Shown one piece after another: positions 2,850 through 37,814 of a stretch of 39,138 bases of DNA (positions within the stretch are counted from its first letter, which is position 1; each line of letters starts with the position of its first letter). The DNA is taken from positions 1-39,138 of IMG/VR virus record IMGVR_UViG_2541047828_000002. The stretch is one strand, 5' to 3'. Source of the DNA: a virus. Its lineage: Duplodnaviria > Heunggongvirae > Uroviricota > Caudoviricetes. The position numbers were made by a program, and so were the translations under genes. The notes under the pieces are model-generated. The model was not told where the DNA came from. It did no database searches and was given only the letters and a program-made list of their open reading frames with translations.

Positions 2850-3193
2850 TATTTCACCTCTTGCTGTGACATTGTTGAAAAACGGATACCAGCTCGTTGC
2901 TGCCAGACGATCCAACCGAGAGTCATATCCCATGCCATGTATTCATTATCGCCGTTTTTTGCTCTCCGACGATCGACTGTTTTACCGAAACGCTTTTCCA
3001 TAAATAATTCATAGGCTGCGCGTTCATCTGGCTCAACTTCCAGAGATGCCAGTGCAATCCGTGCCAGTTCTAAATCATTTTCAAGCTCAGCGCGAATCTC
3101 AGCGAATGCACTCTGTGTTAAGGCGAACTCAATGCTCTGCACTTTATTCCGTGCGCGCTCAAGCAGTGCATGGTAGTTAATTTCGGTTGTCAT
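2849..3193 (-). CDS. hypothetical early-left protein (114 aa)
   Basis: ATG-initiated ORF that overlaps xis by 1 nt and the upstream gene by 4 nt (ATGA-type coupling). No family recognised. Confidence 0.5.
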   Translation of the reverse strand: MTTEINYHALLERARNKVQSIEFALTQSAFAEIRAELENDLELARIALASLEVEPDERAAYELFMEKRFGKTVDRRRAKNGDNEYMAWDMTLGWIVWQQRAGIRFSTMSQQEVK

Positions 3194-4068
3194 ACCCCTA
3201 CCTCTTCGAATTCCAATTTCAATTGATCACCCCAGATTTCACATGACTCTGAACACGAACCGGTATCGAATCGCCTGGCCTGTACCATCGCCTGATACAA
3301 ATTTCTGTAGTCGCTGTTGGCAGACATTCTGGCAATTCCGTCAAGCGTCAGGTGACCACGGTACATAATGTCTTTACCTGTTCTGCGATGACCATCCCTG
3401 ACGTGTTTGCCTGTAACCAGCTCATTAAAAACTCGCATCAGACCTGGTTCGTCTTTACATGCAAGCCCCAGCTTTTGCGTTGACTTTTTGATGCAGAAAA
3501 CACAGTTCCCGAGATGCTCCGGGATTTGCAAATCAAAAGGTTGTTTTCGCCACCACCGGATAACATCCGACTTATCAAAATCTGACAGCTCGGCAAGATA
3601 CCGGACGCCCGATTTCGGTTTCAGCCTACGGGGTTCGTCTGCACGAATACCCAGCCATGTGATGTAATTACCTCGCCCGAAATGGTTATCGCAGTATTTC
3701 GTGAAAGGGATGAGTTTTAGCCTGTCAGTACAGAACGCGCCGCCGATGTATGGCGTGCCGTACTTTTTAACCATGTCCATAAACGGTTTAAGCACCGGCA
3801 TTCGTGTCTGAATATCCTTTGGCTCCCATTCTGTATAACCATTTGGCTGCCCAAGCTCAGGATTTATATCGACCTGTAACACAGTTAGTGGTATGTCCCA
3901 GAACTTTACAACCTCCCGGATAAAGCGGTATGTCAGCGGATGTTCGCAACCGGTATCCATAAAGATATAGCAGACGTTATTGCCAGCCTTTCTTTGTTCT
4001 TCCATCAGGTGAACAAGATATGCGGATGTTCTCCCGCCAGAAAAACTAACTACATGAGTTATGCACAT
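3190..4068 (-). CDS. PAPS-reductase-like PP-loop ATP pyrophosphatase family protein
   Basis: Motifs SFSGGRTS (PP-loop-like) and FMDTGCEHPLTYRFIREV, comparable to CysH LTDTGYLFPETYRFIDEL. Start taken at the internal Met (MCITHVV...) with a 10-nt overlap of the upstream ORF stop; the longer 4185 start would overlap the upstream gene by 127 nt. Confidence 0.7.
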   Translation of the reverse strand: MCITHVVSFSGGRTSAYLVHLMEEQRKAGNNVCYIFMDTGCEHPLTYRFIREVVKFWDIPLTVLQVDINPELGQPNGYTEWEPKDIQTRMPVLKPFMDMVKKYGTPYIGGAFCTDRLKLIPFTKYCDNHFGRGNYITWLGIRADEPRRLKPKSGVRYLAELSDFDKSDVIRWWRKQPFDLQIPEHLGNCVFCIKKSTQKLGLACKDEPGLMRVFNELVTGKHVRDGHRRTGKDIMYRGHLTLDGIARMSANSDYRNLYQAMVQARRFDTGSCSESCEIWGDQLKLEFEEVGV

Positions 4069-4595
4069 TTGCGTAATTCCGATAACTCGTTGAAGCGTTC
4101 CATAAACATCCCGTAGGCATGGCCCGGTGCCAGTGGAATAACTTTGAACATCTCTGTTGCCGGGATACCTTCCAGTACAGGCCATAAAGAGCCATCATCA
4201 AGCCCGAGATCACGGCGTTCGGTTGCCAGCATAATGAGATCGGCATATTTCACGGGCGTGCTCATAACCGGGGGTAACCCGTATTTCTCACGGATTACGG
4301 CGTCTATTTTTTCTTCCATCCGTTTATAGCCAGGAAGAAGGCGTTTCAGTTGCGCGGGGATGTCCTGACAATACGCTTCTGTTGCATCATGCATTAACGC
4401 TTCAAAGGCGAACTCTGGCGCCACAAGTTGACTGCACAGAACGGAATGCTGCGCCACGCTGTAAAAATCCGGCAAGTGTCCCGCGAAGCGGCAGATATTT
4501 GAAAGCGCACCGGCGATATCCTCGATATAAATATCGTCAATGGTGGAGTTGATATAATTGAACTTCTTACCGGTAAGAGTCTGGATAAAACTCAT
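4059..4595 (-). CDS. HD-domain phosphohydrolase (YfbR/YfdR-like 5'-deoxynucleotidase family)
   Basis: 178-aa ORF with H...HD...D signature (SVAQHS ... LMHDATEAYCQDIP). RBS AAGGAGAAC lies upstream on the minus strand. Size and motifs match the prophage HD-hydrolase class. Confidence 0.7.
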   Translation of the reverse strand: MSFIQTLTGKKFNYINSTIDDIYIEDIAGALSNICRFAGHLPDFYSVAQHSVLCSQLVAPEFAFEALMHDATEAYCQDIPAQLKRLLPGYKRMEEKIDAVIREKYGLPPVMSTPVKYADLIMLATERRDLGLDDGSLWPVLEGIPATEMFKVIPLAPGHAYGMFMERFNELSELRKCA

Positions 4596-4752
4596 CGTTA
4601 GTTCTCCTTAATTGGTGCGCTGCACCGCACGATTTTTGGTTGCACGAATCCCTCGCCATAAGGCGATTAAAAGTTTTGGTTTCGTTTCAGTAAATGCCCC
4701 ATCCAGAGGCACTTAGTGCAACGGGCGGCTGCCATCGCCAGTTATTTTCCCC

Positions 4753-4837
4753 ACTCAATTGAAAGCGCGTTCCGGAGGTTTTGGACTTAACGAACTGGCA
4801 CTTAATGACAAGGGACAGAACGCGCTTTCAGTTGAGT
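4753..4837. repeat. 20-bp inverted repeat (1 mismatch) flanking a 45-bp spacer
   Basis: Left arm ACTCAATTGAAAGCGCGTTC (4753-4772) and right arm GAACGCGCTTTCAGTTGAGT (4818-4837). Not followed by a T-run on either strand, so not a canonical intrinsic terminator. Confidence 0.6.
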
Positions 4838-4990
4838 AAAAAGGTGGCTATTCATCAGAACATTGTCGCCTTCATTAGGTTTATCTGTTGAAGATCTGTA
4901 AGCCGCTTATAAATAAGTAGATATAAGATATTAGGAAAAGAAGAAGGACGTTATAGTTTTATTTGTGATGTGCAAAGTATATTTGAATAA

Positions 4991-5007
4991 AACCCGCCCA
5001 GCGGGTT
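4991..5007 (-). terminator. hairpin downstream of the 5018..5614 gene (putative intrinsic terminator)
   Basis: AACCCGC-CCA-GCGGGTT stem-loop, followed on the minus strand by TTATTCAAAT. Lies 11 nt past the stop codon. Confidence 0.45.
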
Positions 5008-5017
5008 CTAAAGTGTT

Positions 5018-5614
5018 TTAATGATTGTCGTGATAATTAATTGGCTCATCATTTTTTTTGTCTGGCATAGTTATGGACCACTTTATATTCTTTAGGCTGT
5101 TATGTTTTTTATTGACCTTAAGCTCTCTCTTTGCTTCAGAGATAATATCGTCTAGTAATACTTTTAATTTATCAAGTCTTGACTTGTGGGCATCTATCAA
5201 CTCTATACTATCAAACTCCCATTGTATAAATAGATTTTCTTCATTTTCAATGAATGAACGGATTTTATCCCCACACTCTTCTGTTAAGAATAATGAAGAT
5301 AGCTCACCTATTCTACTGAGTTTTTCAAGCTCATTAGAGAAAGATTTGCTAAGGATTTCATTTTCTTCTTTTGATTTGTAACTAAAGTAGGTTGGGAATT
5401 GTGAGGTGTGATGTAACTCCTGTTTATACCAATAGTCAGCTGTGTTTTTTAGAAGATAAACACAGTCAACTAATTGCGTATACAAATCTATTCTTTTGTC
5501 CCACCATTTTTCTTTATAATAACGGCCGAGTGCATATCGCGCAGTTAAGTAAGCTGCGATTGAGCCTGTAACAAGTCCGATAATTACCTTTGATATAAGG
5601 TCATGCCAATCCAT
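5018..5614 (-). CDS. hypothetical membrane-anchored protein (198 aa) in the immunity region
   Basis: Strongly AT-rich ORF MDWHDLISKVIIGLVTGSIAAYLTARYAL... with one N-terminal hydrophobic helix and a charged helical remainder. RBS AGGGA upstream. Flanked by hairpin terminators at 4991-5007 and 6074-6091. Confidence 0.6.
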   Translation of the reverse strand: MDWHDLISKVIIGLVTGSIAAYLTARYALGRYYKEKWWDKRIDLYTQLVDCVYLLKNTADYWYKQELHHTSQFPTYFSYKSKEENEILSKSFSNELEKLSRIGELSSLFLTEECGDKIRSFIENEENLFIQWEFDSIELIDAHKSRLDKLKVLLDDIISEAKRELKVNKKHNSLKNIKWSITMPDKKNDEPINYHDNH

Positions 5615-6066
5615 TTTTATTTTCCCTACATTATGTTATATAATTGTTCATATCATACAATTGTTGAGTATAGATGTCTCGTTATTCATCAACATTTACT
5701 CCTGTTAAATTAGGGGGAGGATGTATTAAAAATATTCATCTGGGTCGTCTAAATATTTTTGATAAACTAATAGCAATAACACTATCAGTATTGCCTGCCC
5801 TCACGTCGTTCTTGCTCTCGCGCGATTTTTAACTAAACACTAGCAGGATTTATCATGGTGCTACGCTACATTTACTTGTAGGGAGCTAAACAGATCATTG
5901 ACGCTGAAAATATTCAAATTGTTAAAGAGCGAAGCGTCCTATGGGCGTTTTGTTGCTAACGAATCATCTTGGACTTCATATGCCCCAGGCGGCTACTTCG
6001 TGGGCATCCTGCCTGTTTGTTGTTTCGTTTTGGTACATTATGTATCTGCGGGGTACATTGTCAAGT

Positions 6067-6091
6067 ATAAAAAAACCTGCCGAAGCAGGTT
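6067..6091 (-). terminator. intrinsic terminator after the repressor gene
   Basis: AACCTGC-CGAA-GCAGGTT hairpin (6074-6091), followed on the minus strand by a 7-U run. Lies 13 nt past the cI stop. Confidence 0.6.
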
Positions 6092-6103
6092 CATAAATAT
6101 TGA

Positions 6104-6778
6104 TTAGGCCTTTATTTTGTATCTTCTTGGTTTTCCCGAGAAAATCACAGTGCCAATTATAGAGCAATTACCGTTAATCTTAATGTAGGGCTCAGGCCAG
6201 TTTGGGTTTAATGCTTTGAGATAACGCTGTGTTCCATCTTCTATCAATCGCTTGAAGGTGGTTTCGCCTGTATCGTGCATCAACGCAATAACGTCGTCAC
6301 CGTGGCAAGCAGGGACTTCAGGATCAACAAAAATCATGTCTCCCGGACGGTACTCATCAATCATTGAATCACCAATCACCCGCAAGATATAAGTCATTTC
6401 GCCACAGGGTACAGGGCAGGGATAAGTTTCTGCTGTGCTCAAATCAACCTCAGAATAGCCAACTTCTTTCCATGCTCCGGCCTGTACCCATGATATGACA
6501 GGGACTAACGTTATTTGTTTGTTAGTGATTGAAACATCAGTTTTTTTTGTGATGTTCGTTGTCTGGTGTTCTTGATCGAGCCATCCGACAGGCAGGTCGA
6601 AACATTTTTCAATGTGTCGTGCCATGCTGTCACCGATATTTTTAGTAGCACCATCTCCCATAAACCTGCTGGTCTGGGTTGGCTCGCGATCAATCATAGT
6701 GGCAAAGGAAGAATTCCCGCCAACACCATCTCTCAGTTTTCTGGCGTTAGACCGCCGGATGTCATGGATTGTTTTCAT
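6104..6778 (-). CDS. CI-type prophage repressor (N-terminal DNA-binding domain plus S24 LexA-like autopeptidase domain)
   Basis: C-terminal VIGDSM (Ser nucleophile) and FKRL (Lys), with overall resemblance to the lambda cI C-terminal domain (VSGDSM...FKKL). Divergently oriented to a cro-like gene. Confidence 0.88.
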   Translation of the reverse strand: MKTIHDIRRSNARKLRDGVGGNSSFATMIDREPTQTSRFMGDGATKNIGDSMARHIEKCFDLPVGWLDQEHQTTNITKKTDVSITNKQITLVPVISWVQAGAWKEVGYSEVDLSTAETYPCPVPCGEMTYILRVIGDSMIDEYRPGDMIFVDPEVPACHGDDVIALMHDTGETTFKRLIEDGTQRYLKALNPNWPEPYIKINGNCSIIGTVIFSGKPRRYKIKA

Positions 6779-6793
6779 AACGAAATTAAAACC

Positions 6794-6814
6794 CTTGTAC
6801 CGCCAAGGTACAAG
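6794..6814. promoter_or_regulatory. putative OR operator 1 (palindrome CTTGTACC-GCCAA-GGTACAAG)
   Basis: Perfect 8-bp inverted arms in the 90-bp divergent cI/cro intergenic region, 16 bp upstream of the cI start. Confidence 0.5.
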
Positions 6815-6842
6815 TATCTTGAAGGTTCATTTTAATCATGTA

Positions 6843-6865
6843 ATATGTACACTGGAGGTACATAT
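6843..6865. promoter_or_regulatory. putative OR operator 2 (palindrome ATATGTAC-ACTGGAG-GTACATAT)
   Basis: Perfect 8-bp inverted arms sharing the GTACA half-site with operator 1. Overlaps the cro RBS GGAGG. Confidence 0.45.
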
Positions 6866-6868
6866 TGT

Positions 6869-7069
6869 ATGAAAGCGTATTGGGACTCTTTAACCAAAGA
6901 ACAGCAGGGTGAGTTGGCCGGAAAAGTTGGCTCAACACAAGGCTACTTACGGCTGGTTTTCAATGGCTATAAAAAAGCCAGTTTTGTGCTGGCTAAAAAA
7001 CTTGAGCAATGCACGTCAGGTGCAATTACGAAATCTGACTTAAGACCGGATATCTATCCGAAAGATTAG
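6869..7069 (+). CDS. Cro-like HTH regulator
   Basis: 66-aa product MKAYWDSLTKEQQGELAGKVGSTQGYLRLVFNGYK... with an HTH-like segment. RBS GGAGG 9 nt upstream. Divergent from cI. The upstream ATG at 6845 lacks an RBS. Confidence 0.7.
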   Translation: MKAYWDSLTKEQQGELAGKVGSTQGYLRLVFNGYKKASFVLAKKLEQCTSGAITKSDLRPDIYPKD

Positions 7070-7100
7070 CAGAACACTTTCAATTTTTAACCACAGAACG

Positions 7101-7664
7101 ATGAGGCTAATCGTGGGTAAGCATCACTGGAAAATAGAAAAACAGCCTGAGTGGTACGTGAAAGCTGTCAGAAAAACTATCGCAAAGTTGCCGGGTGGTT
7201 ACGCTGAAGCAGCTGACTGGCTCGATGTAACAGAAAACGCTTTATTCAACCGCCTTCGTGCAGATGGCGATCAGATTTTCCCGCTGGGATGGGCAATGGT
7301 TTTACAGCGTGCTGGTGGCACTCACTTCATTGCTGATGCTGTGGCGCAGTCTGCAAATGGCGTCTTTGTGTCTCTTCCTGACATCGAGGATGTGGACAAC
7401 GCCGATATCAACCAACGCCTGCTGGAGGTCATTGAACAGATCGGCAGTTATTCAAAACAGATTCGTTCAGCAATTGAAGACGGTGTAGTGGAACCGCATG
7501 AGAAGACAGCAATTAATGACGAGCTGTACCTCTCAATTTCGAAGCTGCAGGAGCATGCAGCACTGGTCTACAAAATTTTTTGCATTTCAGAAAGTAATGA
7601 CGCCCGCGAGTGTGCAGCTCCGGGCGCCGTGGCGTGTCGTGACTGTGGAGAAACTAACGCATGA
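7101..7664 (+). CDS. putative CII-like early regulatory protein (187 aa)
   Basis: Second gene of the rightward early operon. Segment [29 protein letters not shown] is reminiscent of the CP76/YdaT-type phage regulatory family. Call rests on position and memory. Confidence 0.4.
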
Positions 7665-13028: not shown

Positions 13029-14360
13029 TTACTGGATGAATGACATTTGATTAATATATTTTATCAATAACTCTCTGGGTGTAGTACTCCAAAAATTTAT
13101 GTGTTCATAATCAGTATAAACATTTGTGAATTTTTTAAGTTCTTCATCACTTTTAGGGGCAAATCGCTCATTAAGAGTAATACTGTCTTTAATTATTCCG
13201 AAGAATACAATGGATATTTCAGGGATTTGCGATCTTCTCTCATAAGAATAAGGTATTTCTTTTATGTTAAGCAGGTCTGCTAAATAAGATATAGATTCAG
13301 CGGTAATTTCTTGTTTTAGTTTTTCCTTGTTACCAAAGCAATGTATGAAGGCAGCTACGACAAAGATCATATTTATTAAAGGATCACTGCTTTTGTTCTC
13401 ATCGTCGTTTAACAGTTGAAAAATGTTAAGATTGCGTGAAAATGTTTGTGTTTCACGTAATGATAAGTTGGTTCGTTGAATTAAATCACGGATAAAGTAA
13501 CCTGATAATCTATTGATTTTATTCAATAACCTTGTTTTTTCTACAAGGTAATCCCAATATATAACAGAGGCTTTACATACGTTGTGACCATTTATCAAAC
13601 ATGTATCTGGAAGCGTGATGGTATATTTTATAAACTTGTCAAGATACTTTTGTGAGTTAATGCTATAACCATAAATATGATTTATAGATGCTTTTAATTG
13701 TTCTGTGTTTGTAACTAAAATAAAAAAGACATTATTGATGTCAAAAATGTGTTTTATTGTTTCAATGACATTTGTTGAAAAACTCGGCTTACATCGGTCT
13801 AATTCATCAATTATAATTACGATTTTTTGATTTTTTGATATGCTTTCGATGCAGGATTTAAGTGAATTTATGTTTTTCTCTGAGTCCATATGGTCTTCAA
13901 GCAAATTTTCAATAGTCCCATCTATTGCTGCATTGCTTGCTTTCTTCATCGCATCTTGGAATTCTTCGGCAACTTCACTAGCCTCCTGTCGTAAAAACCA
14001 ACCTGCACCAGCTTTTAGTACCGTTTTTAAACCAAAGCGAATTGCAGGAAGAGATCTCTTAATGAAGTGTTGTTTTTCTTCCTCAGGCAAAATGCTGGCA
14101 ATTGCAGAGGTTATGAGAAGTAATGGAGATTCTGCATGATCCCCTTTAAAGGCATCAATATAAACAACTTTAGATTCAGTTTCTTGCTCAATAATGAGAT
14201 TTTTCAGTTTGATACTAAATTCTGTTTTCCCTGTTCCCCATGCGCCGTCTATTACCAGTGGTGAAATGTCTGCCTCTGGTTTTAGCAACTTGATGATATT
14301 TTCAGCGATGTTTCTTCGTTGGAACTCGTCACGTTCAGTGAAAGATAGTGTATCTAACAT
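13029..14360 (-). CDS. KAP-family P-loop NTPase (PifA-like), candidate abortive-infection/defence protein
   Basis: 443-aa AT-rich ORF on the opposite strand to the phage backbone. Walker A VIDGAWGTGKTEF and Walker B-like KIVIIIDELDRCKP are hallmarks of KAP NTPases. RBS AGGAG upstream. Confidence 0.85.
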   Translation of the reverse strand: MLDTLSFTERDEFQRRNIAENIIKLLKPEADISPLVIDGAWGTGKTEFSIKLKNLIIEQETESKVVYIDAFKGDHAESPLLLITSAIASILPEEEKQHFIKRSLPAIRFGLKTVLKAGAGWFLRQEASEVAEEFQDAMKKASNAAIDGTIENLLEDHMDSEKNINSLKSCIESISKNQKIVIIIDELDRCKPSFSTNVIETIKHIFDINNVFFILVTNTEQLKASINHIYGYSINSQKYLDKFIKYTITLPDTCLINGHNVCKASVIYWDYLVEKTRLLNKINRLSGYFIRDLIQRTNLSLRETQTFSRNLNIFQLLNDDENKSSDPLINMIFVVAAFIHCFGNKEKLKQEITAESISYLADLLNIKEIPYSYERRSQIPEISIVFFGIIKDSITLNERFAPKSDEELKKFTNVYTDYEHINFWSTTPRELLIKYINQMSFIQ

Positions 14361-29585: not shown

Positions 29586-30032
29586 TTACTGTGCGAACAC
29601 GCAATTTCGGCCTGATGGGGAGCCGACAATTCTGGACATTTTTTCGCAAATAACAGTTACCTGTTCTCCTTTTTTAAGAGCAGCAGCTGTTGATTTTTCA
29701 GAGTCTTGCATCTCCATTCTTGCTGGCATGAATTCATTTTCAGTTCTGAATTTAATAATTATAGAGTCAGTAAAGTCCTTATCAATGGATTGTACGATAC
29801 CTCTAACGGCGATTAATTTACCTTTTAACTGTTCATCGGTAGCGACTTCATTTTCTTCATACTCTTTAAACAGCTGTCGAGCAGTAGTGTTGTAGATTTC
29901 TTTTTGCGGTGCCGCAGCTTCCGTATCGGATGAGTATGAAGAATTAGAGCCTTTATCGTTATTGCCTGCAAAATATCCAATAATCACCAACCCGATGAAA
30001 ATATATAAAATCCATTTTAATAATTTCTTCAT
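29586..30032 (-). CDS. exported/membrane-anchored OB-fold protein (tRNA_anti-like family)
   Basis: AT-rich 148-aa ORF on the opposite strand. N-terminal hydrophobic anchor MKKLLKWILYIFIGLVIIGYFAG. Then ARQLFKEYEENEVATDEQLKGKLIAVRGIVQSIDKD...KKGEQVTVICEKM, which matches the remembered signature of the tRNA_anti-like OB-fold family. Confidence 0.6.
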   Translation of the reverse strand: MKKLLKWILYIFIGLVIIGYFAGNNDKGSNSSYSSDTEAAAPQKEIYNTTARQLFKEYEENEVATDEQLKGKLIAVRGIVQSIDKDFTDSIIIKFRTENEFMPARMEMQDSEKSTAAALKKGEQVTVICEKMSRIVGSPSGRNCVFAQ

Positions 30033-36746: not shown

Positions 36747-37814
36747 TTAATGAAATTTATCTCGGATGAATTGTTGCGATGGCTTTTCAATGAATATATA
36801 TGACATATAGCTAATTGCCATTAATGTAAGCATGAATAAAATGAATACCTTGGGGCTGTAAAAAAGATCGCGTCCATAGCCAATCTTGTCAGCTAAATAA
36901 ACAACAATGATTTGCAAAGGAAAATGTAAAAGATAAGATGAATAACTGATATCACCCAACCATTCAATTTTCTTCCCAAAATCGTTTCGTATTGCGCTAA
37001 TTGATACAAGGAAAAAGATTATGGAGGTAAATCCGAATAAGATAATTGAGAATATATCTGCTACTTGCAGGGTAAAGATAACTCCCCATGAGATCAATAG
37101 AAAAACACAAGCAAAAATAAAAAATAATTTTGCGCTAATATTTTTTATGACCGCAATCGTAATTTTATAGGTCAGACCACCAATAAAGAAAGAGAATGCG
37201 CCGATCATTATGGGATTGTTAATTTTGAAAAAGTAGTACGACAATGCAACTATTAAAATTGATATGAATGTTGTTTTTGATGTGAACTTGCATAATATAA
37301 AAAATATCATGTACATAAGTACTTCAATCGACACGGACCATGTCGGGGCGTTGAAGGACCAACCTCGCTCAAATCCCCATGATTGAATCATCAATAAATT
37401 CAGAATGGCATGGTAAATGTCATTCATAGGATAAACAAAAAAATAATTATGACTTTTAAAGAAAATAATTTGTAATATTGCCACGACAGCAAATGTAAAT
37501 ATATAAAGTGGATATAATCTACTGACACGGTTAACTATAAAAGTTTTTGCTGAGGTTTTATTGCTGTGTATATTGTCAGCGTATAGATAAAAAAATATGA
37601 ATCCAGAAATCATAAAAAACAATTCGACAGCATATAAACCGTAATGATAAAAAACGGAAAAAAATTCATAAAAAGGTTGGCGGTTTATGATTATGTCAGA
37701 TGCAGCATTCTTTTTCATAAAAAAATGTTGCCAATGCCATAACACAACGGAAAGTGCGGCAAATCCTCTCAGAACATCCAGGGTATATATTCTCTTCCCA
37801 AAAAAATTCGTCAC
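36747..37814 (-). CDS. acyltransferase family 3 integral membrane protein (O-antigen acetyltransferase-like)
   Basis: 355-aa, very AT-rich ORF with about 10 hydrophobic segments. N-terminus LDVLRGFAALSVVLWHW is the characteristic acyltransferase_3 start. GTG start with RBS AAGAGG. Confidence 0.8.
   Translation of the reverse strand: MTNFFGKRIYTLDVLRGFAALSVVLWHWQHFFMKKNAASDIIINRQPFYEFFSVFYHYGLYAVELFFMISGFIFFYLYADNIHSNKTSAKTFIVNRVSRLYPLYIFTFAVVAILQIIFFKSHNYFFVYPMNDIYHAILNLLMIQSWGFERGWSFNAPTWSVSIEVLMYMIFFILCKFTSKTTFISILIVALSYYFFKINNPIMIGAFSFFIGGLTYKITIAVIKNISAKLFFIFACVFLLISWGVIFTLQVADIFSIILFGFTSIIFFLVSISAIRNDFGKKIEWLGDISYSSYLLHFPLQIIVVYLADKIGYGRDLFYSPKVFILFMLTLMAISYMSYIFIEKPSQQFIRDKFH

Follow-up and report, generated by a model that had tools for sequence, protein, structure and literature searches.

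Just downstream of the cI repressor of an SfV-like Escherichia coli prophage lies ORF198, a stand-alone gene whose product is predicted to anchor a cytoplasmic four-helix bundle in the inner membrane by one N-terminal helix, and which belongs to a larger family that has so far gone without annotation. The reading we favor, at about an even chance of being right, is that ORF198 is a lysogen-expressed single-gene defense factor, with abortive infection by membrane perturbation as the likelier mechanism. We infer that the lysogen expresses it, that it acts against phages and how it would do so from the position of the gene, the architecture of its product and the defense-gene neighborhoods of its distant relatives.

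Genomic Setting of ORF198

The stretch of DNA analyzed (“the window”; 39,138 nucleotides) carries proA, a tRNA-Thr(CGT) gene (1369-1444) and an integrase gene, followed by a prophage resembling SfV, SfII and SfIV. ORF198 (5018-5614, minus strand) encodes 198 aa between an ATG start and a TAA stop, with a Shine-Dalgarno sequence, as read from the DNA, 8 nt 5' of the ATG (AGGGA, 5623-5627, minus strand), the AGG of which is kept in relatives. Its upstream neighbor is the cI gene (6104-6778, minus strand), encoding a Peptidase_S24 repressor (E 1.4e-26) of the SfV/e14 ymfK type that is 99% identical to SfV cI; beyond cI come cro (YdaS type) and then a CP76-type cII.

A first-pass annotation had described a 198-aa ORF just downstream of cI, AT-rich together with its upstream region and bracketed by terminator-like hairpins at 6074-6091 and 4991-5007, and this description holds up: the GC content is 33.5% in ORF198 and 33.9% in 4845-5910 versus 50.3% in the whole window, ORF198 lies in a trough of 32-34% GC between flanks of 45-55%, and both hairpins fold as minus-strand terminators. 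The cI terminator (6066-6092), also annotated as a terminator in SfV, has an 8-bp GC-rich stem followed by U7 (stem 6092-6073, -14.2 kcal/mol, z -5.0); the intrinsic-terminator-like hairpin directly 3' of the ORF198 stop (4988-5010) has a weaker U tract (-13.6 kcal/mol, z -3.3). The low-GC cargo segment (34%; about 4845-5918) sits between conserved non-coding flanks, whose homology stops at about 4844 and about 5919-5925, giving an island of about 1.1 kb at 34% GC downstream of an SfV-type cI. The AT-rich DNA upstream of ORF198 also holds a divergent 52-aa ORF (5674-5832, plus strand) with a hydrophobic C-terminal half, and nothing supports regarding it as a gene; over 5781-5931, it shares 73% identity with the corresponding upstream region of one homologue locus (L007).

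Prophages with the same cI (99-100% identical) bear unrelated genes in the place of ORF198: orf33, between annotated terminators, in SfV; a 242-aa gene on the plus strand in PhiR29_1; orf35/36 in SfIV, whose proteins were reported as unique to that phage (PMC3851460); and genes of 170 and 171 aa, on the plus strand, in two E. coli prophages. Where the repressor of a related backbone is a different one, a tRNA-Arg and an ECs1072-family gene, or a gene for a BRCT-domain protein, stand at this point. ORF198 itself is present in 16 of 5,426 complete E. coli genomes, strain ECONIH4 and CX-series strains among them; the slot-flanking DNA has matches in 1,363 genomes. It shows the deviant base composition of a moron, has its own promoter and terminator, and is present or absent between homologous phages; it is therefore a stand-alone moron, one gene between its own promoter and terminator, on low-GC DNA gained by horizontal transfer.

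The DNA next to cI is recognized as a mosaic hotspot, home also to rexAB and bstA (PMC8585504). The idea that this slot is a known hotspot for defense genes is not supported by a survey of its contents: ten further cargo genes, taken from it and from two related slots adjoining cI, match no established defense family, yielding two weak matches to PADLOC candidate systems and nothing informative in Pfam beyond BRCT and DUF7946/7947. Since the other cargos are also unknowns, the slot itself adds little evidence for defense.

The left edge of the cargo is marked by a conserved non-coding element (4617-4844) containing a stem of about 25 bp (arms 4753-4772 and 4818-4837; -35 kcal/mol, z -4.7). Unrelated E. 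coli prophages have a copy of it (about 91% identity) separating their cargo from the first early-left gene; in one of them, it adjoins a tRNA-Arg. It may be a recombination anchor or a terminator. An Rfam scan of 4400-7000 (E<=1) found no match for the element; its single hit, to rsmX, was judged a chance match.

Transcriptional Context

A second conserved non-coding block (5919-6103) begins at the cI stop and extends for about 190 bp, with about 91% identity in SfV, SfIV, PhiR29_1 and E. coli prophages, whatever the cargo beyond it. Besides the cI terminator, it includes a near-consensus promoter on the minus strand (TTGACA-16-CATAAT, 6064-6037, within a putative pL/OL at 6031-6064) overlapped by two GGTACAT sites. 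The hexamer found in these sites occurs in four more copies in the cI-cro operator region, and GTAC is enriched about 15 times at both places; in a related prophage with a different repressor, a different palindrome, CTACTWTAAGTAG, stands at both corresponding places. At the far end of the block, forming the right edge of the cargo slot, is an exact rrn-type boxA (GCTCTTTAACAA, 5919-5930, minus strand), the only exact match in the window to the rrn boxA consensus, TGCTCTTTAACAA. This boxA is inside a conserved GATTGTTAAAGAGC block in six of seven aligned related prophages, including one with a different repressor; SfV diverges here. In a lambda-like relative (L008), the order is operators, CGCTCTTTAACA, an arginine-rich N-like ORF, and then a homologue of ORF198.

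The promoter at 6064-6037 is thus likely to be a cI-controlled early-left promoter, pL, with OL operators, followed by a boxA antitermination leader; the block as a whole looks like OL/pL with an N-independent, rrn-like leader. ORF198 would then occupy the first slot of the pL arm, within the early-left transcription unit. This bears on the “rex/sieB-equivalent position” that had been assigned to the gene: being downstream of the likely OL/pL and boxA, its position is sieB-like, and the rex half of the comparison falls away. The deduced order in SfV/e14-type prophages (cI terminator, putative OL/pL, boxA leader, exchangeable cargo, conserved hairpin element) gives testable predictions on the timing of cargo expression. 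A put-like structured RNA in the pL leader was also considered, and was dropped because the predicted fold is no more stable than shuffled controls (z -0.18).

ORF198 has in addition a sigma-70-like promoter of its own (GAGACA-17-TATGAT, 5652-5680, minus strand), located by promoter scanning. The Raoultella and Logan homologue loci retain the hexamers and their 17-nt separation, with a spacer of divergent sequence; the promoter is conserved across three backbones, and the promoter region travels with the gene. The expected pattern would be low constitutive expression in the lysogen, with read-through from pL on induction.

Predicted Structure of the Protein

The single N-terminal transmembrane helix and charged helical body first proposed for the ORF198 protein are borne out by hydropathy, composition and modeling. 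The best 19-aa Kyte-Doolittle window is residues 6-24 (1.71, only just above the usual threshold; the family median peak is 2.0), and the scan finds no second hydrophobic segment. The remainder consists of helices with many charged residues (22 K, 7 R, 15 D, 18 E; net charge -4). Hydropathy and positive-inside counts place the membrane helix at residues 6-27 (codons 5534-5599, minus strand), with a small-xxx-small motif, typical of helix-helix packing, at G13, G17 and A21; the extended small-xxx-small-xxx-small pattern is found in 55 of the 64 diverse members aligned from the wider 365-cluster family described below. Directly after the helix comes the main family signature (residues 29-41, LGRYYKEKWWDKR, codons 5492-5530, minus strand; family consensus ALxRFYxEKWWEKK), in which W38 is invariant and E35 is present in 97% of the 64; a second signature, AKKDLK, is C-terminal.

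An AlphaFold2 model built from the 64-sequence alignment has a pLDDT of 90.6. In it, helix 1 runs unbroken from residue 3 to residue 70, transmembrane segment included, and is joined in an up-down four-helix bundle by helices 82-104, 112-133 and 139-164; the C-terminal tail (residues 167-198), absent from most family members, is disordered. This model supersedes an earlier one made from eight sequences (pLDDT 61), with which Foldseek was uninformative. The four-helix bundle as modeled is a generic fold, and points to no function.

Which side of the membrane does the bundle face? An alternative to a membrane anchor is a cleavable signal peptide, which would release the bundle into the periplasm. 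This was rejected: K and R average 0.3 ahead of the helix and 4.1 over the 15 residues that follow, with more after than before in all 64 members, and because the N-terminal tail is nearly free of K/R while about four follow the helix, the segment is better read as an N-out transmembrane helix. Positive-inside prediction gives N-out/C-in for 64 of 64 members, and the ORF198 protein has the predicted features of a bitopic inner-membrane protein of this orientation, in which about five residues should face the periplasm and the body should be cytoplasmic. The best-conserved residues are those at the membrane interface, and the modeled architecture, in which a cytoplasmic bundle is rigidly fused to a packing-prone membrane helix, suggests a sensor directly coupled to the membrane.

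Family Membership and Distribution

The protein matches PHROG 17948 (function unknown) end to end (E 2.9e-94, residues 1-185 on 1-185 of the 185-position profile), so that the initial remark that no known family was recognized stands for Pfam, NCBIfam and PADLOC (PADLOC-DB 2.0.0, 5,027 models), where it has no match, and needs slight amendment for PHROGs. Screening all 64 aligned members against Pfam and PADLOC also gave no credible match, only scattered PADLOC hits (E 7e-4 or weaker), each in one or two members. Sensitive profile and structure searches, which had been proposed as a check, returned only PHROG 17948, uncharacterized phage proteins or non-specific helices: PDB sequence searches with the 8- and 64-sequence profiles produced only weak helical or coiled-coil matches, and the structural matches in BFVD were to uncharacterized phage proteins. 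An initial search among 5.8 billion proteins gave 10 close clusters; a profile made from these recovered 365 clusters at 50% identity (E<=1e-3), mostly of 150-200 aa, and sequence comparison thus places ORF198 in a larger unannotated family. The E. coli “hypothetical protein” WP_001764244.1 is 98% identical, and every database copy bears that label. A literature search found no mention of WP_001764244, PHROG 17948 or the accessions of neighboring cargos, and none of three accessions for the protein is in the DefensePredictor supplements; the gene is catalogued but uncharacterized.

The family (at least 365 clusters at 50% identity) has members in Enterobacterales prophages and reaches as far as Deltaproteobacteria and candidate-phyla bacteria. 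At least four other lambdoid backbones have a homologue, 44-72% identical to ORF198, in this slot downstream of cI; those at 71% (Raoultella), 65%, 56% and 44% identity are placed behind an S24 repressor in the same direction, in company with different repressors and replication modules. In lambda-like L008, the homologue is between the N-like gene and cIII, starting 30 bp after the N-like gene. The true rex-equivalent position of L008 (cI to OL, 6397-7263) is filled by a gene whose 288-aa product has DUF7946/DUF7947 and weakly matches PADLOC PDC-S42, and the ORF198 homologue is further left, after the N-like gene.

More distant homologues (24-30% identity) occur in two other prophage settings. 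In Proteus and Tatumella prophages, with flanks confirmed by Pfam, they directly follow a MuF-like head gene and precede scaffold and capsid genes, and ORF maps indicate the same order in Enterobacter and Kluyvera prophages; these post-MuF proteins are 170-184 aa long (L020, 7992-8546; L022, 7986-8498; L023, 7956-8471; L024, 7977-8492), and the place is a second recurring cargo slot of the family. In the temperate phages CobraSix and OS31 and two Enterobacteriaceae prophages, the homologue is next to xis/int. At the tblastn level, phage records are few: three, representing two distinct phages with integrase/excisionase genes, plus two plasmids.

Outside prophages, the neighbors of homologues include type III restriction-modification (RM) genes with PDC-S02; TIR-TM with a KAP NTPase; Shedu SduA; RM fragments with SLFN_AlbA_2 and AAA_21; Mrr; an MmeI-type RM enzyme with a weak PycTM match; and, in a Microgenomates bacterium, UvrD, a faint DUF5677 match and IS/integrase genes. 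The homologue in Salmonella enterica strain s1 (L019, 7986-8498; 170 aa, 28% identical over the full protein and 41% over the first 68 aa) is a lone chromosomal islet with no phage genes nearby, flanked by genes which, from their N-terminal sequences, we take to be ycgN and dsbB. No partner gene recurs in any context examined, which argues for a single-gene module. The family thus behaves as mobile single-gene cargo that favors temperate-phage accessory slots and defense neighborhoods.

Comparison with Known Exclusion and Abortive Infection Systems

SieB aborts the lytic growth of superinfecting phages and is kept from harming its own phage by an internal product, Esc. The P22 and lambda proteins (192 and 184 aa) are close in length to ORF198 (198 aa), and their genes are also in the early-left region near N and pL, P22 sieB with its own annotated promoter; the homologue in L008, between the N-like gene and cIII, is where lambda keeps sieB. 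The two differ in direction, sieB being transcribed against pL and ORF198 with it, and in sequence: hhalign of the ORF198 profile against lambda and P22 SieB gives a probability of 0.2% for both, and neither Pfam nor PHROG yields a SieB match at E<=1.

RexB is a multi-pass membrane protein, whereas the ORF198 protein is single-pass and without similarity to it (hhalign probability 0.5%). RexAB resembles ORF198 in being prophage-encoded and adjoining cI, and has a membrane component that was proposed to depolarize the cell (PMC8585504). It consists, however, of two genes between cI and OL that are co-transcribed with cI, while ORF198 is a single gene beyond a strong cI terminator and downstream of the putative pL.

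For the general design there is a precedent in the Staphylococcus aureus prophage protein PdpSau, which confers abortive infection with membrane depolarization on infection (PMC10127798). Like ORF198, PdpSau and lactococcal AbiP are encoded by single accessory genes (on prophages or plasmids) and combine an N-terminal membrane helix with a cytoplasmic body. The cytoplasmic domain in PdpSau/AbiP is a positively charged OB-like fold (PMC10127798), in contrast to the modeled acidic bundle (net charge -4) of ORF198, and the predicted orientation of PdpSau is N-in, that of ORF198 N-out. No homology between ORF198 and PdpSau/AbiP was detected in PHROGs.

HK97 gp15 is a moron-encoded inner-membrane block to phage DNA entry. 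It and SieA share with ORF198 their small size, moron origin and inner-membrane location, and their genes are inside virion modules, as are those of distant ORF198 family members; they differ in that the bulk of the ORF198 protein is predicted to be cytoplasmic rather than in the membrane or periplasm, and hhalign against P22 SieA gives a probability of 1%, over the hydrophobic helix only. BstA, an Abi protein of BTP1 with a KilA-N-type domain, shares the niche downstream of a prophage repressor, but is larger and soluble, while ORF198 is membrane-anchored and contains neither KilA-N nor any other Pfam domain. BstA is described as localizing to sites of phage DNA replication (PMC8585504). The four-helix sensor bundles of histidine kinases and chemoreceptors (NarQ, QseE, 4HB_MCP; 6-10% sequence identity) are periplasmic, with two flanking membrane helices and an output domain; that of ORF198 is predicted to be cytoplasmic, with one membrane helix and no output domain.

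Possible Roles

If ORF198 is a defense factor acting by abortive infection, as we think may well be the case, the lysogen would make the protein from its own promoter, and the cell would be protected against other phages. The product would insert in the inner membrane by its single N-terminal helix, leaving about five residues in the periplasm and the body in the cytoplasm, with the helix running unbroken into a bundle that is kept close to the cytoplasmic surface of the membrane. The bundle would detect an infection cue at the membrane; the Gly/Ala-rich membrane helices would then associate and disturb membrane integrity or potential, aborting the infection. Several points go against a defensive role in the lysogen: as far as sequence comparison reaches, the protein is unlike any known defense family; DNA of 34% GC may be silenced by H-NS; and the gene points the same way as a pL transcript that is probably antiterminated, so that lytic or early development, and not the lysogen, may be its main time of action.

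A broader version, which we advance tentatively and consider somewhat doubtful, is that the family as a whole is a widespread, unannotated group of single-gene immune proteins, in which the cytoplasmic bundle, rigidly joined to its one membrane helix, would be sensor and membrane effector at once, and which would move between prophage slots and chromosomal defense islands. If an anti-phage role were confirmed, this would be a compact membrane defense family of simple, confidently modeled architecture, and at about 160-200 aa its proteins would be easily dissected by mutagenesis and the mapping of escape mutants. Such a role would also go some way to accounting for the unknown genes in the cargo slot next to lambdoid repressors. 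The role would be of a known kind (prophage membrane exclusion or abortive infection), in a family and fold not previously linked to it. If ORF198 has no effect on phages, it is an ordinary uncharacterized moron.

Another possibility, which we regard as unlikely, is superinfection exclusion proper: the protein would block phage DNA entry at the inner membrane without killing the cell, as do P22 SieA and HK97 gp15, by interfering on the cytoplasmic side with an incoming phage's channel or ejection proteins. This would suit a predicted prophage-borne inner-membrane protein whose family occupies both known kinds of Sie slot (beside the immunity region, and inside or after virion modules), and SieA shows that a single inner-membrane protein can be sufficient for exclusion (PMC10883804). 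Set against it are the lack of homology to SieA, the mere five or so residues predicted to reach the periplasm, where injection conduits assemble, and the relatives found outside prophages beside RM, Shedu and TIR genes in distant phyla, a spread that fits general defense better than a block tuned to one injection machine.

ORF198 could instead be an early gene for the phage's own use, the first of the pL arm, modulating a host membrane component at infection or induction, with FtsH/HflKC, cell division or a host defense as examples. It is directly downstream of, and co-directional with, the near-consensus promoter with its repressor-type sites and exact boxA; the CobraSix and OS31 homologues adjoin xis and line up with the early-left operon, and the L008 homologue closely follows an N-like gene. 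We nevertheless consider this quite unlikely, since sporadic occurrence (the same 16 E. coli genomes, versus more than 1,300 with the flanking cI-region DNA), a self-contained unit with its own conserved promoter, terminator and foreign base composition, and relatives in non-phage defense islands and in the lone Salmonella islet make a pattern not expected of a core developmental function. Finally, cargo unrelated to phages, whether a lysogenic-conversion gene for an envelope or stress factor, a toxin-like membrane peptide, or a functionless selfish passenger, would agree with a fold from which no function can be read, with the other low-GC morons of this prophage that have non-defense roles (such as an Acyl_transf_3 acyltransferase) and with the predominance of unknowns among the cargos of the cI-adjacent slot, but is improbable given that the juxtamembrane motif and fold are conserved family-wide, which argues for a selected function, and that a defense- or restriction-type gene is within a few kb in every non-prophage locus examined.

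Other Cargo in the Same Prophage

ORF198 is one of several low-GC genes in this prophage. A second moron (33% GC; 13029-14360, minus strand), between the Q antiterminator and lysis genes, has as its product a P-loop NTPase of the KAP family (443 aa), with a match to the PADLOC candidate system PDC-S20 (E 4.5e-177) and a weaker one to PifA. Inside the tail module, on the opposite strand, is a 148-aa ORF (37% GC; 29586-30032, minus strand), probably another moron, with a hydrophobic segment at the N terminus of its product, which also contains a tRNA_anti-like (OB-fold) domain (E 2.9e-19). After the tail-fiber genes, near the right end of the window, comes the Acyl_transf_3 gene (32% GC; 36747-37814, minus strand), which looks like an O-antigen acetyltransferase gene for serotype conversion, in what is presumably an SfV-like placement. 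The early-left region also contains a PAPS-reductase-like gene (3190-4185, minus strand) with a moderate PADLOC match of the SspD/DndC type (E 1.8e-14); as listed, it begins within the HD-hydrolase gene (4059-4595), and this overlap of 127 nt suggests that its true start is probably further downstream.
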